The translations under genes and the position numbers were made by a program. 64,000 nucleotides of DNA from Phyllosticta citribraziliensis. Lineage: Eukaryota. The DNA lies in contig NW_027117342.1 of assembly GCF_038025025.1 (NCBI RefSeq), positions 62,001 through 126,000 on the forward strand, read 5' to 3'. Below the pieces are notes generated by a model. It was given only the letters and a program-made list of their open reading frames with translations, was not told the DNA's origin and made no database searches. This document shows positions 1 through 47,024 of this stretch, piece by piece (position 1 is the stretch's first letter; the number at the start of each line of letters is the position of its first letter).

Positions 1-3000
1 TTAATTTTATCTTTAGTCTTACTTTACTATAATTAAAGCTTATACGCGGTTTAAAGCTATAATATATAAAGAAGGGGGATATGCCTATAGACGCGTTAAC
101 TAGCATATTAGTTATAAGTTTAGTAATTAGTAACTATATATCCTAGTTGTCTTATCTCTAGTTAATAAAGCTATATAAGTACTTCTTAAGCTCTTAGTTA
201 GCTTGTTCTATTTAGCTATCTAACTATAGGTAATAAGGAGTTATTAGCTTAGCTATTATCTTTAGCTACTATAGTACTTCCTTCTATAAGTTAGTAATAA
301 ACTAAGGGCTATAGTCTAAGATAATAGTCCTTAGTAGGCTATAGAGGCTAAAGACCTACTTAATTATTATCTTAGCTATCTTAGCTACTCCTATCCCGCC
401 GTCTTCTATACTATACTTAATATAGTACTTAGATTTACTAAACTAGTTATATACTATAAGAATAGTATTATAGCCCTACTTAGTTCTCTTAAGGCTAGTT
501 ATAAAGTCTATAGTAAGGTCCTCCTATAGGTGCTCCTCTACTAGTAATAGCTATAGTAGGCTATTTATCTTATTATACTTCTAGCTATAACTATAAAGTA
601 TATAGTTCTTTATAAGTTAGGTGATCAGCTCCCTTATTTTTAGGAAATAATACTAGCTTAATACTATAGGGTATATCCTAGCTATACCTAGGTATCCTAT
701 TACTAGCTACTTATATATATACCTAAGTAGGTAGATATATAGGTTGTCCTCCTCTAGGATATATAGCCTATTAGCTATATATAGTAAGCTATTATAAAGT
801 ATATATACTTTATACTCTCCTACCTACTTATAGAGAGAGTCTATTTCTAGTATTATTTTATAGTTATACTATTTAATTACTTTAATAATATCCTCTAGGT
901 CTACTAGGTCTAGTTAGCTAGTAATAGCTTTAGAGTCCTCTTCCTAGGTGCTGTTATTATCTTTCCTTCTACTAGTTATTAGGTTTACTATACTAGTAAA
1001 AGGTAAAGTAAGTAGAGAAGGAGTATTATAGCCTGCTCCTCTTAAGCTTAACTAATTAATTAAGGTCTACTCTCCCTATTTATAGTTGCTAATATTGTTA
1101 CTTATAAATTATATTAGGATAGGGGAAAGTACTAAGCTAATAAGTAGTATTAGTTACTTATTCTCTAGCTTTACCTTAGTATACTCTAGGTTATCTTTAA
1201 TAATGCTATTATTATACTTACTAGGTTTATTTATAATAGAGTTAGTCTAGTCCCCTTTTAATAGCTTTAAGTCCTACTATTTATAAGACTTATCTAGTCT
1301 TTTAGGGGGGAGTAGCACCTAATACTAGTACTAGTTATAATTATTATTTTTAGTTACTTAGTCTTATATTTAGTAGGTAAGAGTATTAGCTTTACTATTT
1401 ACTTTTCTAAATTAGTAGATAATCTTAAAATAGTATCCTACTAGCTCTTTATTCTACTAAATCTAACGCCTCTAAAGCTTCTTAGTTATTATAAACCACT
1501 ATAGTATTTAGTAATTGGTATATATAGTAAATAGCTCTAGATCTACTAATTTTAGTTCTAGCTCCTAGGCTTTAAGTACTATAATAATAGCTAATAACTC
1601 CTTATTATAGATCGCGTAGTTAGTTTTAGCTAGAGTTATAGTATATAAGAAGAAGGCTACTAGGTATATTTATCTATTAATCTTTTAGGAGAGGACTCTA
1701 CTAATATTAATATTAGATATATTAGTTTCTATAATAGTCTTAAGCTTTAGGTTAAAGTAGTATAATATAGGTACGCTTATTATAGTATCTTTAAGAGCCT
1801 TAAATACTTATTACTAGTCTAGTCCCTATATAAATAGGATGTCCTTCCCTATTAGTTATATTAGTAGCTTAGCTTTACTACTAAATCTATAGATAAAATG
1901 CCTATAGAAGTTTATAAATCCTAAGAATAACTAGATATTATATACTAAGTATAGGGCCTGCTAGCCTATAATTACTTTAATCTTTATAGGGTCTATCCTT
2001 AGTCCCTTAGTAGTAATAATCACCCCTAAGAACTTTATTTCTTATATATAGAAATTATACTTATTAATATCTACTTATAAACCCTAGTCGTATAGGTATT
2101 TTAATACTTTATAGATATATTACTAGTACTTATTAAGTGTCTTACTATAGATTAGTATATTATTAAGATATACTATATAGAACTTATTTAGAAACTCTAT
2201 AAGGTATTAGTTAATAAGATACTACTAGACTATAGGCCTATTAGCTATACTAAAGGGCATCACTTTATAATAATACGCACTAAACTTTATTTAGAATGTT
2301 ATAAGATTATATAAATCTTTATCTACTAGGATATAGTTAAAAGCTTATCTAATATCTACTTTTATAAGATATTTAGCTCCCTAGATAAGGGTAATAGTTT
2401 TATTAATTAATAGGATAGCGTGCCTATCCTTCTTTATTATATTATTAAGCTACTAGTAGTCTATATAGAATTATACTCCTCCTCTAGGTTTATAGACTAA
2501 TAGGATAGGGGATAAGATAGATAAGTAGCTCTTTTTAATAAAATCTTTAGCTTTATTCTCTTAGATATACTATTTTACCTTACTAGCCATCATCTTAGAT
2601 ATATATAATAGTTAGCCATACCTAATACTACTAGTATTACTACTTAATTTAATCTTAAAGTCTAGGCTAGGGTAAGAGGGTAGTAGCTTATTAGAAGCTT
2701 CCTTAGAAAATACCTTAAGTAAGTTATAATACTCTTTTAGTACCTTAGTTTTTAGGTCTATAGCCTCCTTAGAGTACTTATCCTACTAAAGATTAAGGTC
2801 CTTCTAGCTAATATAGTTTACTCCTTATACCTAGTTAATAGCTTTAGGGTAGTTAGTATTAATAAGGTAGTAGACTATTATCTTAGATCCTTTATCTTTA
2901 TCTATAAGTATAAACATAGTACTATAGGCCTTTAGGCTATACTTCTTAACTATCTTCTTATATATAGTCTATAAGATAGGAGTAATATCTTTAGTACTAT

Positions 3001-6000
3001 CCTACTTTACCTATATCTTATATAGAGACGGTAGTAGGGCCTTATATTAGATTATTATAGTAATTAATTCTTTACTATAAGTACGCCTAGTATTAGTTCC
3101 TATTAGGGGAATTTCACCTTTACCTAATTCTACTAGTAGAACTAACTAGCATAGCATCTTGCTCTCTAATTAGCCTAATTCTACTAGTAGAATTAGTTAG
3201 TAAGCTTCTTTATTATTTAATTAGTTAGATTCTACTAGTAGAATCCTCTTTAAGATCTTAGGTATTATCTATAGTTTACTATTTTTATAGAGTAATCCTA
3301 TATTTATATTTACTAGTTATTAAATCTCTAAGATGCCAGCTCCTATATTAATTATAAAGCTATACTACTTTTAGTACTCCTAGCTAATATATATATTATA
3401 ATCCTTACTAAGCGGCATGATTATAAATAGTATAGAAAGGTTATAATATAGTCCTACCCTTAAGTAGAAGTTTAATTAGTGTATGAGTTAGTAGTAGTCT
3501 TTTCTAGTAAAGCCTATTATAATATAAGGCTTTTCTAGAGGCTACTTATATATGCTATACTAGTAGAGATAATTTACTAATAAAGTATTAATATATATGC
3601 GCCCTCTATAACTAGTATCTACTAGTACTTAAAGAGGGATAGCTTATCCTATAATATATATATAGATAATATAAGAATAGGATAAAGAGAGTTTATTACT
3701 ACTTAATCTATTCTTATCTAAACTATTATCTTATATGCCCTACTCTATAACTTTAAGTGAGGCTACTTATTTTCTAAGTTAGTATTAATAATATAAATAT
3801 ACTAGACCTTTTCCTTAGTCTTATCTAGGTAATTATAGGAGATATAGCCTAACTTATTATAGTTATAGCACTTTACTATAGATATATTATACTTACTAGT
3901 AATATCCTTATCCTTATTATCTATATCTTTATTATCTATATAGGTAGTATTAGTACTAGTAGTACTACTACCTTAGCTACTATAGAATCCTCTATATCTA
4001 CTACGTCCTCTATAAGAAGTATATCTACTAGTATATATATTATTATCTCTATCCTTATAGGTCTTAGTACTAAAGGTATAGTTATAGGCAGCCTAAGTAT
4101 TAGTAGTCTCTATAAGGAATAAGACTATATTATTAAGGGAGTTGTTATATTAAGTAAGTATAAGGTAGTAGTTACTTTATAAGAGCTTAACTAATAGGCT
4201 TTCCTTTATAGTTATATTGTCCTAGCTAGTAGCTATAATAAGAGACTAGAACTTAATAAGGAACTCCTTTAATAGGGTTATACTTTATATAAGAGTGCTA
4301 AGCTTAGTAATAGTATTGCCCTATTTATTCTTAATACTATATATAGAGTTAAGCTTATACTTTAGCTTAAAGGATATAATAGTAATAATACTGTCCTTCT
4401 AGTACCTAGTAAAGGCCTTGCCTACTTTAGTAGAGAGGTAGAATAAGATATAGGCTATAACTTTAGTATTATTATCCTAGGTAAGTATATTAAGATAGAG
4501 CTTAGTATTAAGTTTACTATACTAGTCTTTATACTTATCTAGGTTAGTATTAAACTTATTAGGGTTATAGACTTAGGGCTTAGAGTAGGAGCTACTAGTA
4601 GTAGAGTAAATAGCAGCCTTATTATAGAGGGCTTTAGTATTATCCTAGCTTATAGCTAGCTAGTTATAAAGGTTATTAATTATTATATATAGGTTATTAG
4701 GCTACTAAGCCTTATACTTATTATACTTATTTTAGAGGGCTATTAGTTTATTCTAGAGCGCCTTAACTTTAGTTTTATACTAATAGTAATACTTATCTTT
4801 ACTATAGTAGTTAGTAATAAGCTAATTAAGAACTACCTAGTACTTATTATTCTAGCTATTAGTAGTTATCATGTTCTTAATGCCCCTAACCTTATTAATT
4901 ATATTCTTTATTAAGTTAAGATCCTCTATACTAATTATAACTTACTCCTTAGAAGCTATAATATTAGTAGGTATAGCTATCTATACTGCTTATAGTACTA
5001 TATCTTATTTTAGTAACTTATCTAGTTAGTATTATATAGTGGCTAGATTTTGTGCGTTATATATATATATAGTAGTTTTAATCTAAACCTATCTAATAGA
5101 GTAAAAGAAGAGTTATTAGCTTAAGTCTTTAGCTAGGATAGAAACCTAGGCTCTTACTTAAAGAGATAATAAAGTAACCTTATAATAATATTATAAAGTA
5201 GTAAATTAGTACTAAGTAAGGTGAGTTAATTAGCTAATAATTAATAATTATAAGGTAGAGTAGTAGGGAGGATATAGAGCTATAGCTAACTTAGCCTATA
5301 GCTTACTTAGGCGCGCATACTACTATATAACTAAGGTTTAGCTAACCCTATACCTTAGTATCCTTATAGGCCTTATAGGCCTTATACCTACTCTACTACC
5401 TATCTACTCTATCTACTATTAATTCATCTTAGGATGGTCCTTTAAATACGTAAATAGTTTATTATATAATATAAAATATATTAGATAGAGCTAGTATCTA
5501 TATAGTAAGACTAGTTAAGTATTATTTAGGGTCTTATTACTAGTACCAGCTAATAGGCCTAATAGGGTAAGGTTAATAAAAAGTATAAAATCCTTATAAT
5601 AGTAATAAGCTATATCTTCTTCTATAGTATTATTATCTACTAATACTTTATTACCTTTATCTAGGCTACTATCTAATACATCTCCTTTATCTTCTTTACT
5701 ATTACTACTATCTAAGCTACTAGTATAGTAATTAGGCTATACCTTAGCTAGGCCCTTACCCTTCTAGTTCTAGTATTAGGATTTTAAATTAGTAGTATTT
5801 CTAGTACGCTTAGGTAGAGCAGGTAGGGCCTTCTTCTTAGGGTATATAATCTACTTCTTAGCTATAGTATTACTTATATAACCCTAGCCCCCTTAATAGG
5901 AGTTATTAGTATTATAGTAGGGATTTTATAAGAATCCTTACTAATTAGTATTACGCGTAAAAGGTTACTTACTTACTTATAGATATACCTTATTATATAG

Positions 6001-7549
6001 CTCGCGCTATATATACTAGTATAACTTAATATCCTAGATAAATTCTTCTATAGTAGTATTAGCCTATAGGTATAGGATAAGTATATAGTATTATACCTCT
6101 ATCTTATTTTAAGCCTATATTAATTAGCTATATACCCTAGTAAGGCTAGATACCTTACTATAATAGATATAATCTAATATAAAATCCGCTATTAGGATAT
6201 TATTGCGTACGCTATATTTATTAAACTTTATTTTATCTAGCTACCTTATAGCTTTATAGACTAGTAATCCCTATTACTCCTATAGTACTTATACCTAGTT
6301 ATTAATACTATTACTATCTAGGAGTGTATCCTAGTAGGTCTTTATTAATTATTAGATATACTATTTAGTAGCGCGACCCTTAAGGTATTACCCTAAGTTT
6401 TTATAGACTACTTATACTAGAATATATTATAAGGATATATCTATAGCTTTAATAAATTACTTAATATCCTAGTAGTAGGTCTAGGTTCCTTTAATTATAA
6501 TATTACTAGGCTTAAATTTAGCTTCTAGGAGGTATAGGTTAAAGAATCTAACCTCCTTAAGGCTAAACTTTAGTACTAGTAGCTACTACTAGTAATAAGG
6601 AGGAAACTACTAATCTAGATCTAGAGTAGTCTATAGACTAGTATTATATAGGCGTCTCTTAGCCTTTCTTTTATAATCTACCTACTAGATTATAGCTCTT
6701 AGGCTGTCCTAATTAGCTTAGGCTTTATAGATAGTATTATATTAGATTTACTAGTAACTCTCTAGGGATTTAAATAATTTACCTAATTATATATTAATTT
6801 TACTTATACTAGTATTAATTATAGTAAGCCTTATTCCCTACTAACCTAGTAGCTTAGATTAGTTACCTAACTATATATTAAGGTTAGTAATAGCTATATC
6901 CTAGGCGCTAAGGTTAGTTTTAAGGTACTAGGCTTAGGCCCCTATAAAAGGTAGTAGGTCCTCTATATTACCCTATCTACTACCTCTAGATCCTTTACTA
7001 GATCTACTAGCCCTAGATATTATAACTCTCTAGTAGTATTAAGAACCTATACTTAATTAGCTAGTAGGATAGTATTTAGGCGCTCTAGGGGGTAGGAGTA
7101 TAGAAAGTAGCTTATATTAGTTATATTATAGTAACTTAGAAGGTTTTAGTAAGGGAAATTAAGTATCTAGGTAGTTAGTATTATACTAGATAATTATATT
7201 AAGGGATCTACTATATAAATCTAAAGAGAGGTTATTACTACTTATATTATAATAGTTAGGGAAATAAAAGGCTCTATAATAGCCTAGTTAGTATAGGTTT
7301 AGATCTATAGAGTAGGATTTATAGCTTAATATATAGGAGTAGTAAAAATAATTAGAAGGTATATATAGAGAAGATAAATATCTAAGGGATATATTAAAGG
7401 AGGGAGTATTAAATAGTTATTATTAGGCGTGGCTAGGTATTAAAGGACTAGTAGATTCCTAGGCAGGTAATAGTAGGCGCGTTATATCTATATTAGGGCC
7501 TAGGATCTAGTATAGTAACTACTATTATAGTTACTTAGTTACTATAGTA
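1..7549 (-). mobile_element. RIP-degenerated Ty3/Gypsy LTR retrotransposon (5' LTR, gag-like regions, PR, RT, RNase H, integrase; continues beyond window start)
   Basis: Minus-strand translation gives RIP-altered motifs in Gypsy order: protease VLVDTSYRG (~3610-3630, =ALVDTG), RT KVMPFS...VYLNNILIYS (~2145-2270, =VMPFG...YLDDILIYS), RNase H IETNISNINISRVLS (~1690-1735, =ETDASD.GGVLS), integrase EDLTIDFITSL (~490-525) and IILDYSP*F (~300-330, =IVSDRGPQF). CpA/TpG are nearly absent, TpA abundant, stops frequent. Confidence 0.95.
7124..7549 (-). repeat. 5' LTR of the Gypsy element (426 bp)
   Basis: Bounded by 12-bp inverted termini TATTATAGTAAC (7124-7135) and GTTACTATAGTA (7538-7549), 11/12 match, consistent with RIP-converted TG...CA ends. 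Lies directly upstream of gag. The partner LTR is outside the window. Confidence 0.75.
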
Positions 7550-10457
7550 CCTAGTTATTATATACTATCTTTATAACTAGTAGATCTATATAGACTAAAC
7601 CTATAGAGGGCAATTATACTATACTCCTTAATTATACTCTAGGAAGACTATTATACTAAGGGTACTTATAGTATTAAAGGGTAGATTAGAGTTAATATAT
7701 ATAGTATTATAATATATTAAGGAGTAGTAGGGGTTAAAGATATAGGTACTAGTATAGGTAGCGCGCTTATAATACTAGCTATAAAATATATAGTATCTAT
7801 AGATTAGCTTATTAGTACTAGTATCTAGCCTATAATCGTCTAGGATTAGCTAGAAGAACTAGGTAGTAAGCCTATAATAATAGGTAGTAGGATAGAGCCT
7901 TATAACTAAATCTTATAGACTAGTATACTAATCCTAGTAACCTAAGTAGTATACTTATTAATAAACTCCTATATAGCGCGCGAGAGGGTCTATTAGCCTT
8001 TAATAGTAGAACTCTAAGTAATAGGGTATCTAGGAAGAGCCCTACTAGCTAGATTCCTTATACTAGCCTAGATCTTAGGAGGATTAAACTATTATATAAA
8101 GGTAAAGATTAACTAATAGGTTAGAGTAAGGAGTAGATCCTAGAGGGACTATAGGCTAGTATCTAAGAGGTTCTATAATTACTAGGTAAGTAGTTAAAGT
8201 TTTATAGGTAGTTCTTATTACTCTATAGTTATTAAGGCAGACTAGATTAGAGATTAGATTCTAGGTATAGAAGGATCTTAACGCGCTATTAATATAGTAG
8301 AAGACGTATTACGCATTTAGATCTAAGTAGCTAGTATAGTAGTAGTAGAAGTAGTATAAAAAGAGGTTTTAACTTATAGAATAACCCTTTTTAGCTACTA
8401 TATATAATAATCTAACTAGATATTTATAGTACTAATTTAGGTATAAGAGTTGTCCTATTACTTAGGCTATCTATATAGCTAAAGTACCTATCCCCTATAA
8501 CTACTAAGCTTACTAAGCTTACTCTTAGTATCTAATAGCTATACTAGATCCCTATAGGATCTACTACTATACTTATAGCTAAGCTTATAGAGGCCTATAA
8601 AGTTAAGATCAATTAGTACTACTATAATAGAACCTAGTATAAGTACTATAAGCTAACTAATATAGTACTTCTTCCTATTAAGTAGGTATAGAGTTATAAA
8701 GGGGATATAGATAGACTACTAGCTTTATTTAAGGTATAACTTATTATATATAGTAATAAGTAGTACCCTAGTCTTAACTACCTATAGATATATATAGTAA
8801 CTATTTATATAGCTATATTAAAGATTCTTATTACTTTAGCTATTATTAATAATTAGTATATCTATTAAGATGATATTATTATAGTATTTCTAAATAGAAA
8901 GATAGACTATTCTAGTATTTATATTTATATACCTATAGGATATAAAGAGTATAATAAGTATAGAAATAAGATAGTTAGTAAACTAGTAAAGGCCTTATAT
9001 AGCCTTAAGTAAGTACCTCTCCTTTAGTAGTTAGAATTTACTAAGTATATAATAATACTTAGATATAAGCCTCTTAAGGCTAATCCTTATATATTTAAGA
9101 CTCTATATAGTAGCTACTTAATTATCTATATTAATAACTTATTATACTTATACCTAAAGCTTAATAGTAGTATTAATACTATAAAGAAGGATATCTACTC
9201 CTATTATAATATATATAACTTAGGTAAACTAAAGTACTACTTAGGTATATACTTTATTTATTATAATAATACTATACTTATCTTATAGGACCTATATATT
9301 AAATTAGTTATAGAGAAGTATAGTATTATAGGTACTAAGCCTACTCCTATACTAGTAAAGGTAATACTTATCCCTAATAATAGTAAACTAGATCTTAAGA
9401 GGATAGTAAGATACTAGAGTATTATTAGTTCTATTAGATATATAGCTAATATAATATATCTAGATATTACCTATACTACTTATAAGCTATACTAATTCTC
9501 TTATAACCCTAGTACTTACTATATAGATCTTATACTTTATTTACTTTAATACCTAAATAGTTATTAGAACCTTATAATTAGGCTTAATAGTAGTAATTCT
9601 ACTAATAGTAGTAGGCTAAACCTTTATAGATATAGTAATACCTTATATAGTAATAACTATAATTACTACTCTACTAGTACCTATATCTTTATAGTAGCTA
9701 GTAGAGTAATTAACTATAAATCTACTAAGTAGATAGTAGTAGTAATAAGTATAATATATACTAAATATATAGTACTTTTATCTATAGCTAAGGAGGCTAT
9801 ATAGCTTTAGAAGCTACTAAAGTAGCTCTCCTATAATAATAATAATAATATTAAACTAGCTAAGCTAATAAAGATCTATAGTAATAATACTACTTTACTA
9901 AAGCTTACTAGTCTAAATAACTATAACTCTAATAAGATAAAATACTTTAATATTACTTACTACTTTATCTATAAGTATATTACTATAGGTAATATTACTA
10001 CTAAGTATATACTAATAGTAGATATAATAGCTAATAGATTAACTAAGGTACTTAAACCTAATAAGTTTACTACTTCTATTAAGTAGCTTAGACTTATCCC
10101 CCTTAATTTAGATAATTAAATAACTATATAATAATAACTTTACTTAATTTATAAAAAGGGATATTATTAGTTCTAATAGTAATAGAGAATTACTTATTTT
10201 TAATACCCCCTCCCCCCCCCCTTTTAGCTACCTTTTTCCTTACTTATTTACTTTATTTTTACTATTTTAGGCTACTACTTACTGCCTATACCTTATAGCT
10301 ACTAAGCCTTAGGGGGTGTAATAGAGGATAGAGTCTCTAGTAGGTAGTAGAGTTATTAGATAGCTAAGGTACTAGTCTATAGATAGTCTAGTATGGTGCT
10401 GCTATAGGTGTTATCCTAGATAATTTCATAACCTGACTCACCTACTCAATTAATACA
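7550..10457 (+). mobile_element. RIP-degenerated Ty1/Copia LTR retrotransposon, 3' half (RT, RNase H, PPT, 3' LTR)
   Basis: Plus strand: FKV*LII (=FKARLVV, ~8728), DDIIIVFLNR (=DDVITAFLNG, ~8870), KALYSLK*VP (=KALYGLKQAP, ~8990-9020), IIYINNL (=YVDDL, ~9121-9141), RNase H YSNTLY (=YSDASY, ~9631) and IIANRLTK (=MVADGLTK, ~10025-10050), then purine tract AGGGGG at 10311-10316. Confidence 0.95.
10317..10457 (+). repeat. Probable 3' LTR of the Copia element (141 bp)
   Basis: Starts TGTA immediately after the polypurine tract and ends TACA exactly where the RIP composition stops. No second copy in the window to confirm it. Confidence 0.65.
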
Positions 10458-10598
10458 CCTTTGATTTCACACCTTCGTCGGCCTCAGACCTCCTTCAGCA
10501 TCACCAATGTCCAAGGAGAATCTGAATCGGCTGGCGCCTTCGACAACAGAAGCATGTCTGCCTTCGACACCGCGCGACACTCGGCGTCGACGCGCCGC

Positions 10599-19558: not shown

Positions 19559-21870
19559 GCGACGACGGTAACAGCCAAGGCGATAGTGGGACTGACGACG
19601 GAAATGACGACGGAAATGACGACGGAAATGACGATGGACATGACGACGAGCAACTCTCCGAGGACGGCATCTCTTCGACTCATTCTCACCCGTATCCCAA
19701 GCTCGCCAACCAGCTGGCAGCGTCGAAATGGGGCCTAGGCAGGTCCGTTTTTCTCCAACACTTCGACAGCGCTGCCTACAATTCGCGAACTTTCCTGCGC
19801 CAGCTTGTGTCCTGGGTAGAACATGGCTCGCTGGAAATGGATGAAATTCACCGGCAGATTCAAGCTACTTGGCACCATGTCTTCAAATGGCCCCCAAACC
19901 ACCCGTTCAGCCTAAAGATTCTCACCGTCACATTGGAGCGGCTGCAGGCCCAAGGGCTCGAAACAGACGTGCCGTTGCGAAAGGATAATCGAAAGAGGCC
20001 TACGAAGGGAAGGGCCCTCCAGATAGAGGCGCAAGGCGACGATGGCCTTGCTGCTCGCAAGTCCGCGCCGCCGGCGACAGAGGCTAGAAGAAACCCAAGC
20101 GCAAGTGCTTTCCGCGTCCAGGTTCAATATTGTGTTCATGAAACTAACTTCTGAGACACGCAGACTCTCCGAAGCAAGTTGGCGCGACCCACAGGTGTCG
20201 ACATCGACAACGACGAGCCCAATGCAGGGAATGCCCGCAAAATGACCCGTACCACTGCTGTTGCGCAGCAGCCTCGAGGTGAAAAACGCAAGCAGGCGGA
20301 CACCGCAATGGATTCGGACCTATTTTCTCCTGGCAAACGCGTAAGAGCAAGAAGCTCCACAACCAACATCATCACATACTCAAAAAAGCCAACGGCTACG
20401 CGGCTGGGGAATGCGGTAAGTAGAAGTGAAAACTCAACATATCTGGATACTCATCTGCTGCCAGCCTCTGTCAAATCCACGTACGCGCACGAGATCCCCA
20501 CCCAAAAGCGATCGTCCTAGAACACCTCAACCGAGACAATCCCCAAGCACTCCTTCTCCCGAAAGAGGCCGCGACGCAACTGACGAAATCCCCGACGAGG
20601 TCCCACACTTGGAGTAAGAGCATACACATCAGAGATGATAGGGAATCTAACGTTGAACAGTAGTAACATCTTGGACGACCAGGCCGAGGAGTCTCAAGAA
20701 ACAGTTTATGCGACCGGTAGTGAGGGCAGCAGGACCACTGAAAAGTCGATGGAAACTGAGTGGACTTCGGCTCCATTCATTCACGATGCTCTCAAAATTT
20801 TTGCCCCAGCCTCCTGCAGAATTCTGGACAGTTCGACCCTCAATCTTGATAGAAGAAGAGACTTTTCTTTTGGAACGCTCACGATTGGCAAACATGACAC
20901 AGAAGCAGCCCTCCCTGTTTTGAAAAACGGGAACCACTGGGGTCTCGCCACTTTGGATTTACAAAGCGGCACGGGCAAGTTTATCGACTTGCGCGACACC
21001 AAAGGCGTTGTTTCCCCAGACGTCAATGATGCTCTGGTGGAACTTGGGACGCGATTGTGCGCGGACAAGGAATGGCGTTTTTCCACGATGCCGACCGCCG
21101 CACCGCAACTCAACTCTGATGACTGCGGTCCTTACACTGTCGCTGCTGCTGCCATGAATCATTGGTATAGCAATGACTCTTTCCCCCTGGAGTCCATCGA
21201 CGCAGCCTTGTGGAAGGTCACTCTGGAAAGGGCGGTAGCGGAGTTCAGGTCGCCTTCAACACAAACCGAGCCATTGGGGCCCCTGGACTATGAACAGACG
21301 CCGCATCAAGAAATGCAGGAATTACTCGCCTCGAATTCGGAAATAGGTTCCCTCGACGATGCGTCCCTCTTTAGACTTCAACAAAAACTGCGGGAGAAGA
21401 TCGAGGACGTGATTCGGGACGTTGTACCGATTCGTTCACAACTGAGCGATGGGGGCTTGAAGAAGATGCTCGACGGCAGCAAGCAAGAGGCCGACAGGTT
21501 GCTGCAAGAGATGGACCAAGAAAAGAGGTTTCGCGAGGATTACGTCGCCATCAATGACGTAGCGAAAGAGCGAGCCAAGGCTTCGCGCCACGCTCTCCAC
21601 AAGGCCAAGCTCGAGAGTTGGGGCACGGCCGAGATTCGCGCCTACGACCAGGCGCTTGCGGGCCTTGCGAGGCGCAAGCAGGAGATTGGAGACGCCATGC
21701 GCGGAATCGAGGCGGCGATCCGGACGCGCGACCACGTTTTGGGGAAAGCTCTGGAGCAGCAATTGGAGGTTGGAAATCAAATTAAGGATTTGAATGCGAA
21801 GGTGGAAGAGGAGCTGGCCGCGCGGAAGAATAAGGTGTGGGAAGATTGGAACAGTGCCATGATGGGATGA
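19444..21870 (+). CDS. Ulp1/SENP-like cysteine protease (peptidase C48), 4 exons, 755 aa: acidic N-terminus, helical domain, disordered linker, C48 domain, coiled coil
   Basis: Exons 19444-20100, 20164-20415, 20465-20613, 20661-21870 join in frame (introns GCAAGT..CTAAC..CAG, GTAAGT..CAG, GTAAGA..CTAAC..CAG). Catalytic His (LPVLKNGNHWGL), Asp (FIDL), oxyanion Gln and Cys (PQLNSDDCGPY) are present. Confidence 0.85.
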
Positions 21871-38937: not shown

Positions 38938-40929
38938 TTAGCTAGACTGGACCTTCGACTTGATGATGTCGCATCTATCCTGAGCGAGCTTGCGGGCGGA
39001 AGCAAGTCCTGGCCGCAACGTCTGGAGCATTTGAATCCGCTGTTGTACAAACCCCACCTCACAGCGGGAGCGACGGATCCCCTGCGACAGCTCACGCTCC
39101 GCTTGGGTATTCTTCCTTGAGCAGAGCTTTATGCCCTTCAAAGCTGCGTGTTGCCGTTTCAAGTCGTTTTTTGCATCTTCGAGACGGCGCTGCGCCTGGT
39201 TGAACGCGTCCTTTGCGCGCACATGCAGCGAATTGACCACGTGCAGAGCGTCATTGGCGTCGTTGAAAGACCGCATCAAACGCGTCATGGCCTCAATCTT
39301 GGAATGCTGCTGTTTGCCCAGGCCATCTTCCTCTTCGTCTTGCTCACCACCTTGCAGACGTATTAGGACCTCACGCCAGAACTCCGTGTCCACGGTTGCT
39401 GGAAGGGACTCGCCGGCACCGAGATAGAGACTTATGACAGAAACGATGACACCGCAGTCGGTCAGATTGTTCTGGAGCGGACAAAATCGTTCTGACAATT
39501 GCTCGGGTGCGCAAGCACTCCACTGCTGTTGGTTGGCTAGGAAGCTTTTGACAAGTTCCGTGACTGCATTGTTTGATTTTCCGTCACCGAGAGGGTCCCA
39601 GTGTTCTGCACGAAGGCCGGCGGGGGTTTGAGTGCATCTCACTAATGTCCAGTGCCCATTTTGGCAAGCTGCGCCGATGATGGTGTTGCTTTCATCATCT
39701 GGGCAATCGAGGTACTCGAGATTGGTTGGGCGCGTCAAGTTGGTCGAGTCAAAGTACTTCCATCCAGGTCTCACTGAGGAGGCGGCTTGGACGAAAAAGT
39801 TGACGCTCTCGTCGCAGAGCTTCTCGTTGTTGGCCAAACGGTGGAAAGCTTCGTCGGATAAGACGCCCGTTCTGGAGTTTCCACTGCGTTCTTCCTTTAA
39901 GCCAGTTTCGTCCGCTTCATCTTCAGCGGTGGAGAGCTGGGATGTGTCTGAACGTGATTGCATCCAAGTTGATGGGACAGCAGGTTGCGACTCGGGAGAT
40001 TCTTCAATGATGCTCTCCAGTCCGCCATCGCCTGTGACAACCGAGTCCTTGGGAATTCGTCCTGTGCCGGTTGTGAGCGGTGTGGGCGGGGGGTTCTTGA
40101 AAGTCTTGGCCTTGCCTTTATGGTTGGAAAAGGGATTTTCGTCGCCAGTAAGTGGGAGTGTCTTCATGGCCCCGGCCTTATTCTTTCGCCTACTGTCCAT
40201 ATTGACGTTTCCAAAACCGCGCGAGGTTTGCTGCTCCATGGTTTGTTGATTCTCCATTGACCAAGTACCACGACCAAAGGATCGGCGTTTAACGGGCGGG
40301 GATAACTCTGGGTCTGAGCTAAAGGATCGACGTTTCACGGGCGCAGTTGCCTCTGGGTCTGAGAGTACTTCAGACATGTCAATGTCGTTTTCAGGCGGCG
40401 GATCCTCTAGAGGTGCTTCAGCACGGCGGGAGTTTTCGACTGGAGGTGAGGCCGGGCCCTCGTCCTCACTCAGCACACTCCACGCTCGGTCAGGCGGGTC
40501 CTCGACGGTGTCTCCAGTTCTCAAATCTTGCAAAACCTTGCGGGCGTCGCCCGGCGCCTGAATGCGCTCGCGACCGGCACCGCGCGGGTGGTGGGTGTCC
40601 TTGCGAATGGATCTCTGTTTAAACAGGCGGGCTTTGGTCTCGTCGAAGGACAACTTGTCGGCAATTTTGACCACGCACTGGAGAAAGTCCTTGGAATCGG
40701 GTTCGCCAAAAGTTTGTTGGATCGTGTCGAGGGGCACTTTCCAGGTATCTGCGAGTCGCTGCTTGTAATGGAGAATTACTTTTTTGTGTGGGTCAAGGGA
40801 TATTCCGTTGTCGCCCGTCTGGGTCGCGGAGTCGCTCTTGGACGACGTTTTCGCTCGGGTGGTGGTGTTGTTCGCTGTGTTCGAGCTGTTGGTGCGACTG
40901 TTGGTGCGGCGCTTGGACATCGCAGGCAT
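38938..40929 (-). CDS. Ulp1/SENP-like cysteine protease (peptidase C48), 663 aa, single exon, C-terminal coiled coil
   Basis: RLANNEKLCDESVNFF (W-L-x-D-E-x-I-N region), YFDS, His in NGHWTLV, Asp in HWDPL, Gln/Cys in PLQNNLTDCGV. Confidence 0.92.
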   Translation of the reverse strand: MPAMSKRRTNSRTNSSNTANNTTTRAKTSSKSDSATQTGDNGISLDPHKKVILHYKQRLADTWKVPLDTIQQTFGEPDSKDFLQCVVKIADKLSFDETKARLFKQRSIRKDTHHPRGAGRERIQAPGDARKVLQDLRTGDTVEDPPDRAWSVLSEDEGPASPPVENSRRAEAPLEDPPPENDIDMSEVLSDPEATAPVKRRSFSSDPELSPPVKRRSFGRGTWSMENQQTMEQQTSRGFGNVNMDSRRKNKAGAMKTLPLTGDENPFSNHKGKAKTFKNPPPTPLTTGTGRIPKDSVVTGDGGLESIIEESPESQPAVPSTWMQSRSDTSQLSTAEDEADETGLKEERSGNSRTGVLSDEAFHRLANNEKLCDESVNFFVQAASSVRPGWKYFDSTNLTRPTNLEYLDCPDDESNTIIGAACQNGHWTLVRCTQTPAGLRAEHWDPLGDGKSNNAVTELVKSFLANQQQWSACAPEQLSERFCPLQNNLTDCGVIVSVISLYLGAGESLPATVDTEFWREVLIRLQGGEQDEEEDGLGKQQHSKIEAMTRLMRSFNDANDALHVVNSLHVRAKDAFNQAQRRLEDAKNDLKRQHAALKGIKLCSRKNTQAERELSQGIRRSRCEVGFVQQRIQMLQTLRPGLASARKLAQDRCDIIKSKVQSS

Positions 40930-43560
40930 CGCTTATGGTGGCACGTATTCCAAGTGATTGCGAAACATGATGCTGGTTGGCTTCAGCCGTGGAGGTGGTA
41001 GTGGTGGTGGTGAGGTGGTGGTGAGGTGGAGGTGGTGGTGGTGGTGGCTGCAGTCGCGTCCACGGCAGTTGGTGTTGAGGCAGGCACCGGACGCCGGCGG
41101 CCCGGCGGCAGAGGCGTGCAGTCACGTGTCAGCGAGTCAGCTTGAGCGCTGACAAAGCATCCGTCGGGTTGCAGTGCCACCTCACCGCCACAACACCACA
41201 ACCACAACCACGATGCACAACACCCACGCGGCGACGCTATGGCGTTCTAGTGGCTCCGTATGGCCTGGGTGCTGTCAGATGGCGTCTTTCACCTTTTTTT
41301 GAAGTTGGTGGAGGAGCACACTCTATCAAACAACCCTGCCGTCACACCGCGTGTGAAATTCGAGGCAGCAAGTCGGTTCGCCAGCACGAGCGCGTCCTCT
41401 CCTTCTCTGTCTTCTTTTGCTGACTGTTTTCAAGGCCACCGCTGCAGCTCATCAATCGCCGACACCGGACATCGCCGCCGTGACCCATGGCCTCCTCTTT
41501 GCCCGTGCCGAATTCGCCGCTCTCAAAACCGACCACAAGTCTTCCGGCCACCTCGAAACCAGTTGACTCTGAAGAGCTTCAAGCAGGCGACATATTAACG
41601 AAGTGTAGGTACAGCTTCATGGCGACCGAGGTACATTGGGAGCCTGTAATACCAAAGACGCCGTGGACCGCGACACGTTGGCCTGCGCATCATCTACAGG
41701 AAGCCTGGGGGCTTCGGGCTTCCTGCGGGCCAAGGTTGCGGACATTTGCGGCATCAACCATGAGGGCGGTACCGGGTCCGTAAGTTGGAGTTGCAACTGA
41801 GTGGGAAGCGCAAAGAAGATGTACACTGTGACTTGATGCGCGCCAACGAAATGTCTTCCTTGCCCATGGCATCCCGCCGCTCTTGGTGGAGCCCTCGTTG
41901 GTATATTTTGTGGGCACACTCGCTCTGTCCTGCACTGCCCCATGGGTTCCTCGACGTCTCTGCGCGGTTTGATACCTCGGCACGTAGGTACGTACGCATG
42001 TTGTCTCTCACACCTCCCCGTTGACTCCGATTCAGAATTGCCGGCAAGATCACTCGTCGCTCTTGGTGTCCCTGCAAGGTGCATCCATGGGTGAGGGGGC
42101 GACAGGACTGATTCGGCGTTACGTCGAGTCCTGGTGTTTTGTGGCGGGCCTTCCGACGGGTCCTCATCCCATCTCACTCGGGCTCGCTATCGAGGGCAGA
42201 AGATGGGAAAGCAGATGGCCCAAATCAGTGCGTCCACCCGAGTGTTGACTCTTCCCACGTCTTGATACATGAAACCACTTGGTCGGCCGCCTTTTTGCTA
42301 CAGCAAGATCTTATCAAGCATTTGTTAAAATCATCAGGGTGTGAAAAGGACACAGGCCCCTCCCCCCAAACTCCTCGAGATCTTCCACCCCGTCTGGCTC
42401 ACCCATCGCCTGCAGACCCCGCCCTCAACAACGCACGCGACCTACCATCTGCCGAGTACTGCTACCATCTGTTCCAGCCAGGAGAGCATGCCAAGATGCA
42501 TGCCTTCCAAGGTTTGTGGCCGAAGCGATTGCACTTACGCATGTAGAAGTTGATTGCCGGGGAAAATTTAATATGATGGAGCTAGAGTGGTTTCATAATG
42601 GTATTTTGAAGTGTTCCTATTTGGAGTCATTCTTTGCCGCCGCCAGAAGTGGGCCGACGCGCATGACAGCGTAAACCCTTCTGCCGTCCCACAGCCAGCC
42701 AGCGCCCAAAGATAAAGAAGAAAACATGGCCAAGTATCCATCCCGTGCGTTGTAAGTACGCGCCGCTAGGAAGCGGATCGGCACTTTCTACAGTTCCTAC
42801 CCTCTTAAAAAGAGCTGGACGGCGAACAAGCCGAGCAGCCAACTGGAAAGAAAGACCACGCTGCTAAAGGAACCGAGCTTGCTGAGCCGCGGCCTGTTAG
42901 GCAATCCTCCTTATTTCCTAGGAAGCTTTCCTCTGTGGATGCTCGCAACCTGTACCGCAGATCCTGGCCTTGTTCCCATCCCCTGTGCATGGTTCTTGCC
43001 CGGTCCCTCGCGCCCACCAACACCGACCGAGTATCCCACAGGAAGCTGGCAACTTTGTGCTATCTCCATCTCGCATGGCGGAGTTTGGCTCGGAAGCAGG
43101 CTGCACCATTCCTTTCCTTCTCCTTCTTCCCTTTTGTACCTCTTGCACCCCGCATTTCACGCAAGTTCTGTCCGCCAAGGTGACGCAAGCTTCGGGAGAA
43201 GCTGTGTGGGCGGGCAGGTTGGAGTTGGAGCCTCGAAGATCGGTCTTGGTTGACGAGTTGTGCAGGTAGTGCCGGCGTTGGCTGCATACTTTTAATGGGG
43301 CATTGACGCAATCTGTCGCCCTGTTCTGGTCAGCCCAAGGCTTGGAGCGAGAGAAGCCATGTGTGCGGGTTCAGCTGAACATGACTCGCGCACGAGCAAG
43401 AGAGAATCGAAGGTGTAGGTGCAGGTCAGGCAGGCGGCGGGGTCGGGCGGCGGGGCTGCGTGATTGTCCGCCGGCGGGACGACCCGCCGGCGGGTTTCCT
43501 CTCTGCCTTCAGGTTTACCACCACCACCATCCAACCCTCACCATCATCGTCATCATCACC

Positions 43561-44729
43561 ATGTCTCGCTCGCGCCAGCGCCGCGCCGCCGAGCGCCACG
43601 TCGCCGCCGGCACCCCCGGTGCCCAAGCCCACCTCGTAAGACTGTTCTCCATCCCTCAATGTATCTCCCTCTAACACGTACGTGATGTGTAGGCCGCCCT
43701 CAACCAGCGGGAGGTTGCCCGCAACCAGCAACGGCGGGCGCGCTCCCAGCCCTAGTAGGTCATCAGACCATGTCGTATTCTACCACATCATTCTGACGGA
43801 GAACACCAGTGCTGCTGCTGCTGCTGCACCCCCTGCTGGTCCTCCTCCGGGCCCCAAGTAAGTCCACGTCGTTCTCCTATCTGTCCACGAGTAGTTGCTG
43901 ATTGAGATAGCCTCCCTCCGGCTCCCCCTGCTGGTCCTCCCCCGGCCGCCATGTAAGTTCACGTCCTCCTGTCTGTCCGCGAATAGTTGCTGATTGAGAT
44001 AGCCTCCCTCTGGCTCCCCCCGCCGGTCCTCCCCCGGCCGCCATGTAAGCTCAAATGCTCCTGTTTCCCCATCGATATAGGTGTTGATTGAGACAGTCAC
44101 CCGGCCTTAGCTCCCGAGGCTGCCGCCCTCCCGGCCGCCAAGTGAGTTCAATTTCTCCTGCCTGCCTGTTTCCCGTGGATAGGTGCTAACGATAGTAGCG
44201 TTGTCCCGCCCGCCGCCGCCGCCAACGACGACGACGACAAGTAAGCTGCAGTGCATTCTCCATCCACAAGTTAGATGCTGATGAAACTAGCGCGGTCCCG
44301 CCCGCCGGCGCCGACGACGACGATGACGCCATGGATGAGGAGGGCGAGGGCGAGGAGTAAGCTGCAGTGCATTCTCCATTCACAATTTAGATGCTGATGA
44401 GAACAGTGTTGTCCCGGGCGCCGCCCCCGCCGACGGCGACGAGGACATGGAGCTGGACGACGAGAAGTAAGCTGCAGTTCTTTCTCCATTCACAAGTCAG
44501 ATGCTGATGGAACTAGCGCGGTCCCGGGCGCCGCCGCCGCCGCCGCCGCTGTCGCCGACGAGGACGACGAGGAGGAGAAGGAAGACGACGAGGACGACGA
44601 CATGTAAGCTACAAGATCACTCTCCATTTGCGTATGGTATATACTAACGAGAATAGCGCTCCGGGCGCTCGCGCGCCCTTTTTCCATATGACGCTGCGCC
44701 CCCTGGCCCGCCGCAACTACAAGCTGTAG
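43561..44729 (+). CDS. 11-exon micro-exon gene, 213 aa: basic N-terminus, Pro/Ala repeats, acidic repeats, basic C-terminal motif
   Basis: Exons 43561-43635, 43693-43754, 43810-43857, 43911-43952, 44003-44044, 44097-44141, 44199-44240, 44291-44356, 44407-44466, 44517-44603, 44657-44729 total 642 nt and read ATG to TAG without a stop. All ten introns are GT-AG, 50-57 nt, with CT(A/G)A(C/T)-type branch sites; nine are phase 2. Confidence 0.88.
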
Positions 44730-45822
44730 TTGTTTTAAGAAATTTGTAAAAATAAAAATGGATTTCTCCCTCTCCTCTCCATCTCTGTCCGTCCGTCGAC
44801 TCTTCTCTCCGCATTGCATTTTCTCCCCCTGTGAAGTGGTAGACTGTCGACTTGCCGTTCGCTATTTGCCTCCCTTCCTCGCTCGTTTTATTGATCATTC
44901 ATAGGGAGGGGGGCATGCATGCGGTGTCGCGGCGAGCGGAGTGGCTGCTGTACGGGCAAGAAGATGGATGGTGCCGGAGACGCTGCACTCACTCACTCTC
45001 CATCGGCCCTGCACTCATTCGACAACAAGGAATTTTGCGAGGCGAGAATGCCTCCCGCAGAGAATTTTGACCGCGCACCTTCTCCCCCCAACGACCACGC
45101 TGCGGGCCACAAGCCGAGCGCGGACCCCGAGACGGCCGTGGATTTCCGGTCAAGACGCTGACGAGGAGGCACCCCCGCGAACAAACCCACCCGATGTCGT
45201 TGACCTATTCGCAGACACTCCCGAGGAGGACCTCAAGAAGGGCGGACCACGCTGTGGCGTAGCAGCTGGCTGGGCCACGATCAACCTTTAGTTCCCCAAC
45301 GCCGACGGCCGCCCTAGCTAGCTCCGCAAACCTAAACAAGGAACCTACCTGCTTGCCGCTCCCAACGTCCAGACGGACTCTCGAAATGGCTCGAGGTCGC
45401 GGTATACTGGGAGCCAGGGGCATGGGCGTGGGGCGTGGCATCAGCAGCGCAAACACAAACCGCGGCGGCGCAAACAGCGGCGGTGCAAGGAGCTCACTGG
45501 GAAAACTCAGGGGAAAATTCAACGCCAGGCGTGACGCAAACGCAAACGCCTCCGCAACGGGCAAGGGAAAGCTCAAGCGCCCGCGACTCGCCAGCTCGAA
45601 TTTTGCAGGTAGCGGCGCGGAGGATATTGGGTGGTGATGGTTGGTATATCCGGTTCACTTGCCGCCGGCGGCGGCTGACATGCGCAGAAACGAGAGCTTG
45701 GCCGGCCCTTTTACTGCTGTTTCGCTCTGGGCGTGCGTGTAGAGAGTAGGATTCCTCAGATTCTCAACTCACGCAAGCCCGGGCAAATTCCAAAAAGTGG
45801 CCAGTGAAGTTAATTTTTGATG

Positions 45823-46056
45823 AAGCTCGCTGCTGCTCCTCGACCCGATCCGTCCAACTACAACCCGGCGGCGGACAGACAGGGTTCGTGCTGAGGAGCC
45901 TGTAGTCCTCGTCATTATTCCGGTCCGGGAGCTTGCTGTCCAGATCTTTGATGAAGCTCTCCTTCTACTCAATACTTCGTCCTTGCGTCATCTGTGGCGG
46001 CGGTCCTACTCCTCATGACCAGTTGGCCGAACTGCGAAAGGGGTTGCGACATTTTA
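45823..46056 (+). pseudogene. Fragment of a Ded1/Dbp1-like DEAD-box RNA helicase (motif Ia to GG), several frameshifts
   Basis: KLAAAPRPDPSNYNPAADR/VRAEEPVVLVIIPVRELAVQIFDEA/YSILRPCVICGGGPTPHDQLAELRKG/CDIL; PTRELAxQI, GG and GCDIL are recognisable. Confidence 0.88.
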
Positions 46057-46329
46057 GGACCATTTGTCACCAAGTTCGCAAGCTTGTTAAGAGGGCTGAG
46101 TAAAATCCATACTTCATCAACTCAGTAAGCTAAACTGTGGCATGTATCCAGACAGCAAGAACAGGTTCCTCGCCCGAGGTTGTGTAATTTTTGACCACAC
46201 CAACGCTGACACAACTACACTCGTACACGCCCTGTCTAACACCAGGAGGGCTCCTTTACCACATCAAGTTCCTCAATCAATTGATTCTCCCAATTGTCCC
46301 CTCTGGCCAGCTGTATTCTCTGTTCTGGA

Positions 46330-46383
46330 GTTTCCGGTAGATGTTTCCGGTAGATGTTTCCGGTAGATGTTTCCGGTAGATGT
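46330..46383 (+). repeat. 13-bp tandem repeat x4 (GTTTCCGGTAGAT)
   Basis: Directly visible, perfect copies. Confidence 0.95.
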
Positions 46384-47024
46384 CCTCTCCCTTGGGTGGA
46401 TCAATTGCCCAAGGATCCACCTTTTCGTTGTGGCTGGAGATGGCCGCATTGAGGGAAAAGCTGGAGCAGTGCCTTTTGGGCGCAGGAGTGGTGTGTACGG
46501 AAGCGGTCTCGCGGTTGGCGTTGTTCCAGGGCGAGAAAGGAGGGAAAGGAGCGCATTGAGAGAAGGGAATTGTGTACCAGACGGAAGCGCTCTCGGTGTT
46601 GGTGTCGTTCCAGGGCGGGAAGGGGGGAAGGGAGCGTATCTAGAGACGGGCACTTCTACTGGTTCCGGTTACCCTCGTCTTTCTGCCTGCCGCCGCTGTT
46701 CGGCTTCCTGGTCGAGTTGTTGGCGGGCAAATTCCTCGTCTCCACTGCTGCCACCGCTACTAACTGGGCCCGGCTGTTCTCACTATTGGCGTTGTTGCAG
46801 GGCGGGAAAGGAGGGAAAGGAGCGAAGTCAGGGACAACCTGGCACCGCTGTTCGGCTTCCTGGTCGAGTTATTGTTGGCGGGCAAACTCCTCGTCTCCGC
46901 TGCTGCCGCCGCTGCTGACTGGGCCCAGGCTGTCGAAGAGTCTTCCACTGAAATGAAGGACGTGGTCTTGATCATGTGCTCCCGGCATGTTCAAGAGGGT
47001 GAGGAGAACAGCCCTGCTGTCGCA

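Follow-up and report, generated by a model that had tools for sequence, protein, structure and literature searches.

The window analysed here is a stretch of 64,000 nucleotides (nt) from Phyllosticta citribraziliensis (contig NW_027117342.1 of assembly GCF_038025025.1, positions 62,001 to 126,000 of the forward strand), and all coordinates given below are positions in that 64-kb window. On its + strand, at 43561-44729, lies a gene of 11 exons and 10 introns with a spliced frame of 213 codons, which opens with an ATG at 43561 and closes with a TAG at 44727-44729, within the last exon. The gene model was built by script from the window sequence. Introns 3-10 of this gene appear, on strong grounds in the sequence, to have originated by duplication together with their exons. 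The parts of the gene, with the matching pieces of a contig from a public sequencing run (X1), were as follows.

43561-43635, + strand: exon 1, 75 nt (25 codons), basic N-terminus; the contig is continuous over 42800-43635 and then resumes at 43693.
43636-43692, + strand: intron 1, 57 nt, phase 0, GTAAGA..CTAAC..TAG, not related to any other intron of the gene; contig joint 43635>43693.
43693-43754, + strand: exon 2, 62 nt, second basic segment; matching contig piece.
43755-43809, + strand: intron 2, 55 nt, phase 2, GTAGGT..CTGAC..CAG, likewise not related to any other intron of the gene; contig joint 43754>43810.
43810-43857, + strand: exon 3, 48 nt, Pro/Ala-rich.
43911-43952, + strand: exon 4, 42 nt, Pro/Ala-rich.
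44003-44044, + strand: exon 5, 42 nt, Pro/Ala-rich.
44097-44141, + strand: exon 6, 45 nt, Pro/Ala-rich.
44199-44240, + strand: exon 7, 42 nt, Val-Pro-type start and Asp/Glu tract.
44291-44356, + strand: exon 8, 66 nt, Val-Pro-type start and Asp/Glu tract.
44407-44466, + strand: exon 9, 60 nt, Val-Pro-type start and Asp/Glu tract.
44517-44603, + strand: exon 10, 87 nt, Val-Pro-type start and Asp/Glu tract.
44657-44729, + strand: exon 11, 73 nt, basic C-terminal tail with the stop TAG; contig piece 44657-45400.
43381-43560, + strand: possible N-terminal extension starting at an ATG further upstream in the same frame, which stays open up to 43561 (273 against 213 codons).

The ten introns measure 57, 55, 53, 50, 52, 57, 50, 50, 50 and 53 nt in order; intron 1 is in phase 0 and introns 2-10 are all in phase 2. 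The lengths of exons 3-10 (42-87 nt) are divisible by 3 in every case (8/8). Donors of the form GTAAG, GTGAG or GTAGG and YAG acceptors were present in all ten introns. The branch-site consensus is CTRAY, and a motif of this type (CTAAC, CTGAC or CTGAT) was found in nine of the ten, the corresponding motif of intron 5 being TTGAT. If left unspliced, the frame reaches a stop after 37 codons, and the longest + strand stop-to-stop frame touching the gene has 134 codons, just 25 of them coding, so that the description of the gene in an initial annotation, made from the sequence alone, as invisible to open reading frame (ORF) calling was a fair one. That annotation had also proposed the 11 exons, the nine phase-2 introns, the exons in multiples of three and the general character of the product, and every number in it that could be checked was reproduced. 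Retention of any single intron (10/10) leads to an in-frame stop inside the same intron. In introns 2-10 this stop occupies intron positions 2-4, because the donor reads G|TAA, G|TGA or G|TAG, and translation of a message retaining one of these introns would therefore end within two codons of the exon end. The ATG at 43561 is more likely the start than the one upstream, because the stretch between the two ATGs is pyrimidine-rich and leader-like; 43381-43560 would then be part of a pyrimidine-rich leader.

Splicing was assessed against run X1, which holds 0.46 of the sampled words of 43300-44900. A fully spliced form on its own would account, by arithmetic, for 744 of the 1571 possible 31-letter words of this interval (0.47), and the run therefore seems to contain the spliced form only. 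One of its contigs, 3447 letters long, was compared with the window over 42800-45400, which corresponds to record positions 463-2536, and showed zero mismatches. Its joints, all of them bridging GT..AG stretches, lie at 43635>43693, 43754>43810, 43857>43911 and 43952>44003 (introns 1-4) and at 44044>44097, 44141>44199, 44240>44291 and 44356>44407 (introns 5-8). The joints for introns 9 and 10 (44466>44517 and 44603>44657) were not listed directly and are implied by the contig coordinates, since record positions 1705 (end of exon 9) and 1793 (start of exon 11) leave 87 letters, the length of exon 10. The ten junctions, which the initial annotation had left to be checked on transcripts, thus fit one spliced contig, eight as listed joints and two by coordinates, and we conclude that the fully spliced transcript exists.

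No further joint was seen in the flanks compared (760 nt before the ORF and 670 nt after it). If the contig is unspliced outside the compared part, it would reach by arithmetic from about 42338 to about 46311. Within this extrapolated reach neither the interval from about 42338 to 43560 (about 1.2 kb) nor 44730-46311 (about 1.6 kb) held a convincing ORF or a Pfam match. The contig ends may represent either a long leader and trailer or a merger with overlapping, neighbouring or antisense transcripts. Some irregularities were set aside in the comparison. The letters CGCG at 44466/44411 of the contig border the masked repeat 44516-44603 and were taken as a placement artefact. Two further contigs, 90-95% alike over about 30 letters (44301-44332 and 44431-44463), continue into unrelated sequence and were assigned to other acidic-tract genes. 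An AC..AG joint is considered with the alternatives below. The contigs are uninformative on exon skipping, intron retention, minor isoforms, transcript ends, strand and level. Combinatorial isoforms, which had been suggested on the grounds that exons 3-10 can be skipped in frame, found no support: such skipping is arithmetically possible, and only the fully spliced form was seen in the contigs. The idea is also disfavoured a priori, because exon skipping accounts for about 3% of the alternative splicing events in fungi (PMC3925392).

The middle of the gene was resolved into two sub-arrays of exon-plus-intron units.

43810-44198, + strand: sub-array A, four units, exons 3-6 (48, 42, 42 and 45 nt) with introns 3-6 (53, 50, 52 and 57 nt).
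44199-44656, + strand: sub-array B, four units, exons 7-10 (42, 66, 60 and 87 nt) with introns 7-10 (50, 50, 50 and 53 nt).

The units are 101, 92, 94 and 102 nt long in sub-array A and 92, 116, 110 and 140 nt long in sub-array B, where each of exons 7-10 opens with a Val/Ala-Val-Pro motif followed by an Asp/Glu tract. Tandem Repeats Finder reported two arrays of 2.8 copies each, 43829-44093 with period 92 and 84% matches, and 44230-44542 with period 116 and 79% matches; a period of 110 was reported in sub-array B as well. Four-copy repeat families were spaced at 95/92/97 and 92/116/110, families D3, D5, D6 and D7 falling in sub-array A and D1, D2 and D4 in sub-array B. Families D1, D3, D5 and D6 cross exon-intron borders, and alignment of the units showed the exon parts to be repeated along with the introns. 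The closest pair of units belongs to D6: 43870-43961 and 43962-44053, each 92 nt, share 91% identity from inside intron 3 to inside intron 4. The first 20 or so nt of exon 11 still resemble the start of the B-unit exons.

Pairwise comparison of the introns gave 87% identity for introns 3/4, 84-90% among introns 7/8/9 (each 50 nt), 62-69% for intron 5 against introns 3/4, 58-64% for intron 10 against introns 7-9, 50-57% between sub-families A and B, and 23-38% when intron 1 or 2 was set against the rest. The intron homology claimed at the outset is accordingly present, and most plainly so in introns 7/8/9 and 3/4. With the donor hexamer and the acceptor triplet removed and 300 shuffles for each comparison, z scores were about 10 for the closest pairs (3/4; 7/8/9) and 5-7 for intron 5 against 3/4. 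Intron 10 scored 3.3-5.1 with introns 7-9, introns 3-5 scored 2.5-4.5 with introns 7-9, and introns 1 and 2 gave values from -1.1 to 2.0 with all the others. As judged by these alignments, exons 3-10 and introns 3-10 make up one array of eight cassettes in two sub-families, and sub-families A and B probably have a common origin. Exon 10 consists over 44529-44601 mostly of a trinucleotide microsatellite, (GCC)n followed by (GAC/GAG)n. The B exons probably owe their in-frame differences in length to this microsatellite.

Introns 3-10 are best explained, in line with the initial annotation, by exon-plus-intron units having been duplicated in tandem within the gene, given the tandem repeats, the intron identities and the unit alignment. 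The middle of the gene would have grown by tandem copying of a cassette of one micro-exon and one complete short intron. Every cassette would bring its own donor, branch site and acceptor, so that a new copy would be splice-competent at birth, and as the cassette exon is a multiple of 3 nt set between phase-2 introns, gain or loss of a unit would keep the frame. An older round of copying would have produced sub-families A (Pro/Ala-rich, exons 3-6) and B (Val-Pro motif and acidic tract, exons 7-10), later rounds would have given the near-identical introns 3/4 and 7/8/9, and slippage of GCC, GAC and GAG triplets may then have altered exon lengths in frame. The characters of the B units form a mosaic, the exon starts pairing 7/9 and 8/10 and the fourth codon grouping 7/8 and 9/10/11, which hints that block duplication of two units or gene conversion has played a part. 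The phrase "recent intron gain" in the initial annotation stands only in part. Intron number did rise by duplication; an existing intron was multiplied along with its exon and not created, a distinction drawn in PMC4974935. "Recent" holds only relative to introns 1 and 2, the youngest unit pair (43870-44053) differing at 8 of 92 positions and introns 7-9 at 10-16%.

All eight differences between the youngest units are transitions, four of them at CpG, and the changes fall on both copies. In so small a sample they might reflect deamination or a mild mutation of the tandem repeat resembling repeat-induced point mutation (RIP). Speculatively, introns interrupting a repeated coding sequence might also alter the way in which RIP sees the repeat.

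Taken jointly, a real gene, its splicing and the origin of the array by cassette duplication were assigned a probability of roughly 0.78. The points that weigh against this reading are brought together here with the alternatives that they favour. On the side of the transcript, the RNA label of run X1 is a guess, and the contig was taken as cDNA because it lacks ten GT..AG stretches; two of its junctions adjoin the repeat-masked interval 44516-44603 and hence rest on arithmetic; and the AC..AG joint, 44432>44657, with 22 letters on one side, had to be explained as the masked end of exon 10 placed on its look-alike in exon 9. As run X1 is not on record as RNA, the contig could be DNA, from another isolate in which the allele has lost its introns by retro-processing. 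The exact loss of ten introns between flanks identical for hundreds of bases is, however, the signature of a cDNA assembly, and the word share in the run is about that expected from the spliced form alone; a DNA origin is regarded as extremely unlikely. With respect to the array, A and B are only modestly alike, and the branch-site motif common to both is part of that likeness; exon lengths divisible by 3 could arise from triplet-repeat slippage without selection, and the search for intron copies was confined to the 64-kb window. The reach of that search is of some use to the view that a mobile intron, either an introner-like element or a low-copy intron, inserted the homologous introns singly and was not copied with the exons, and among near-identical introns of fungi introner-like elements are indeed in the majority, with 1226 of the 1610 multi-copy introns counted across 24 species (PMC3609843). 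Yet the exon sequence is repeated on both sides, the repeat unit crosses the intron borders, and the rest of the window (about 62 kb) yielded only chance matches of 11-13 letters to the introns, which leaves insertion of single introns very improbable. Creation of the introns out of exon sequence, by tandem duplication of a segment containing AGGT (the Rogers 1989 model, as related in PMC4974935), would agree with a tandem array in which each unit border lies near an AG|GT-like site. The model needs the intron to be a copy of the exon, whereas here the introns (G+C 0.45) align to one another and not to the exons (G+C 0.75), and each unit carries a complete intron with its own branch site; little credence, hardly more than a token amount, is given to it. 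A possible but doubtful alternative is that the array is old and that introns 3/4 and 7/8/9 are alike through gene conversion or unequal exchange (concerted evolution) and not through recent duplication. The mosaic of B-unit characters just described, together with differences shared in a non-tree-like way by introns 7, 8 and 9, speaks for it, but the gradual fall in similarity (87-90%, 58-69%, 50-57%) fits successive duplications equally well.

Translation in the 213-codon frame is considered quite probable. All ten introns are contained in a single ATG-to-stop frame that closes in the last exon, and the non-repetitive ends (exons 1, 2 and 11) are likewise in frame. The lack of joints in the compared flanks and the in-frame stop brought in by retention of any intron count on the same side. 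Third positions carry the strong bias typical of coding sequence, GCC being used for 37 of 56 Ala, GAC for 21 of 24 Asp and GAG for 15 of 16 Glu, with A at the third position in just 5 of 214 codons, and the exons contrast sharply with the introns in composition. These features tell against the alternative of a young, lineage-specific transcript in a gene-poor region that is spliced but untranslated, or trivially translated, its frame being a by-product of G+C-rich triplet repeats. There is material for that alternative nonetheless: when the spliced body was shuffled 2000 times by dinucleotides, 5.7% of the results were free of in-frame stops, the other two + frames of the spliced body have only two stops each, and an antisense ORF runs to 242 codons. 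Between the two youngest units, 3 of 42 positions differ in the exon and 4 of 41 in the intron, with no extra conservation of the exon. If the contig is one transcript, its leader of about 1223 nt contains 15 ATGs, a poor fit to efficient translation. All searches for a homologue, made with short pieces of the protein, came back empty and so give no evidence of conservation; the pieces had no Pfam match, and the surroundings, described below, look non-coding. An untranslated or trivially translated locus was judged unlikely overall.

The predicted product of 213 residues is rich in Ala (56) and Pro (34), followed by Asp (24), Glu (16) and Arg (14), and its net charge by segment is +8 (residues 1-46), -1 (47-105), -36 (106-190) and +5 (191-213). 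The protein is most likely intrinsically disordered, its basic head being followed by a Pro/Ala spacer, then by a strongly acidic tract and finally by a tail that is again basic. The chromatin- or histone-binding role suggested in the initial annotation did not gain from the analysis: it has the charge layout behind it, no Pfam match and no relative. From that composition and layout one may tentatively, at rather low odds, think of a protein that is nuclear and uses its acidic tract to bind histones or other basic partners.

Relatives were sought in the databases with short unjoined pieces of the 213-residue protein, so the blanks that follow are weak. Pfam returned no family at E <=1 for exon 1 with the upstream frame, exon 2, exon 10 or exon 11, each submitted as a separate piece. 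Exon 1 with its upstream frame (85 amino acids) drew 1514 candidates among proteins of 150-2000 amino acids, none of them at E <=10, and the 40-residue frame ending in exon 11 drew zero candidates from word-indexed proteins of 71-2000 amino acids. The same 40-residue frame, run with HMMER against 1.84 billion representatives, gave three matches at E <=0.001, all to long repetitive proteins and driven by repeats, which were not accepted as relatives. N- and C-terminal relatives, by which the initial annotation had hoped to find other unit numbers, were thus absent from the protein searches, that HMMER search included. The exon 11 and exon 1 peptides found no usable match in the ESM Atlas, and two scans of metagenomes, one using a consensus of introns 7-9 and the other a degenerate pattern that covers 13 exon 11 residues, gave 0 matches each. 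When the script-built protein was compared with the window by tblastn (filters off), matches outside the gene were confined to low-complexity Pro/Ala sequence (best E 6e-5), and no paralogue was found in the window. As a control, a neighbouring frame of 664 amino acids matched only its own record of 662 amino acids in the length band searched of 5.8 billion clusters. The collection therefore has ORF calls from the source genome and no close relatives, and blanks in it say little. On the favoured reading the gene is lineage-restricted.

The window around the gene is uneven in composition. Its first 10,000 positions (1-10000) have a G+C content of 0.275, a TpA/ApT ratio of 1.89 and a (CpA+TpG)/(ApC+GpT) ratio of 0.08, a strong RIP-type signature by the thresholds in general use, which puts the source organism with the filamentous ascomycetes. 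This AT-rich block spans about 1-10250, and G+C rises to about 0.55-0.6 near 10250-10500. Between 10000 and 64000, none of the 19 stop-to-stop frames of at least 220 codons matched Pfam at E 0.001, and most of their translations are rich in Arg, Ser and Pro, random-like and encoded by G+C-rich sequence. Because of this the gene is placed in a region poor in genes and rich in orphans. The window as a whole yielded no tRNA gene. An Rfam search of 41500-47000 gave a single match, to sR53, which at 21.7 bits fell below the gathering score of 49 and was put down to chance. The neighbouring frame used as the control, at 38941-40932 on the - strand (664 codons), looks like a real protein, with no Pfam family above the cut-off. 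The ORFs at 20584-21867 and 38941-40932 were considered as paralogues and rejected (BLASTP E 2.3).

The gene shows, with support at the level of junctions, how a gene of a fungus with short introns can reach ten introns in 1.17 kb without a new intron having been invented; one cassette of a 42 nt exon and a 50 nt intron, copied in tandem, suffices. It also carries a warning for annotation, as it is invisible to ORF callers and homology is of no help. In orphan-rich, RIP-flanked regions such genes will be found only by transcript evidence or splice-aware prediction. A bolder proposal is that the array is an actively length-variable module, the number of units varying between strains like a minisatellite with its own introns, and occasional in-frame skipping of a cassette adding isoforms. 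We consider this distinctly improbable. If it were true, an orphan acidic protein would gain a tunable spacer and a tunable charge, and to our knowledge a length-variable intron-bearing module of this kind is not known in fungi.

Among known proteins, prothymosin alpha and the acidic tails of nucleoplasmin-type histone chaperones are acidic, disordered and nuclear. The predicted product resembles them in its long Asp/Glu tracts beside short basic clusters, a likeness of composition only, and differs from them in that the protein searches made with short pieces showed no sequence relationship.

The comparison for the introns lies with several described systems. Introner-like elements of Dothideomycetes and other fungi are likewise families of look-alike spliceosomal introns (PMC3609843; PMC4457414). 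According to the first of these they are long, stably structured and found in unrelated genes, whereas the present introns are short (all 50-57 nt) and unstructured (in the six that were folded, stability did not exceed that of shuffles, z -1.2 to +1.3); their exons are repeated along with them, and the window contains no copy outside the gene. Internal tandem duplication that multiplies an intron already present is known from Arabidopsis TOUCH3 (Knowles & McLysaght 2006) and from the survey of Gao & Lynch 2009, both as cited in PMC4974935. As in TOUCH3-type cases, a whole intron has here been copied with its flanking exon, giving more introns and no new kind of intron; unlike those cases, which are from plants and animals and involve few copies, the present one is fungal, its gene having about eight units with introns of 50 nt.

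The nearest class consists of the same-gene duplications (SGD) of Collemare, van der Burgt & de Wit 2013 (PMC3609843), for which the survey gives 82 introns in 24 fungal species and at most 16 per species, half of the cases having flanking exon sequence duplicated on each side, that is, a segmental duplication within the gene. Like these, the gene described here contains near-identical introns whose length and folding energy are ordinary and whose exon flanks are duplicated, and its introns are spliced, the RNA label of the run being a guess. Introns 3/4 and 7/8/9 alone would clearly qualify as near-identical in such a survey, which used a BlastN cut-off. Unlike the SGD cases of the survey, eight introns of a single gene stand here in one array, in two diverged sub-families and between exons of 42-87 nt. 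The copying of exon-plus-intron cassettes is a known route of intron gain that is rarely so tidy, and the gene adds a clean fungal case to a small class while leaving the picture of intron evolution unchanged. It fits the multiplication of a pre-existing intron (PMC4974935), a class known in fungi as SGD (PMC3609843).

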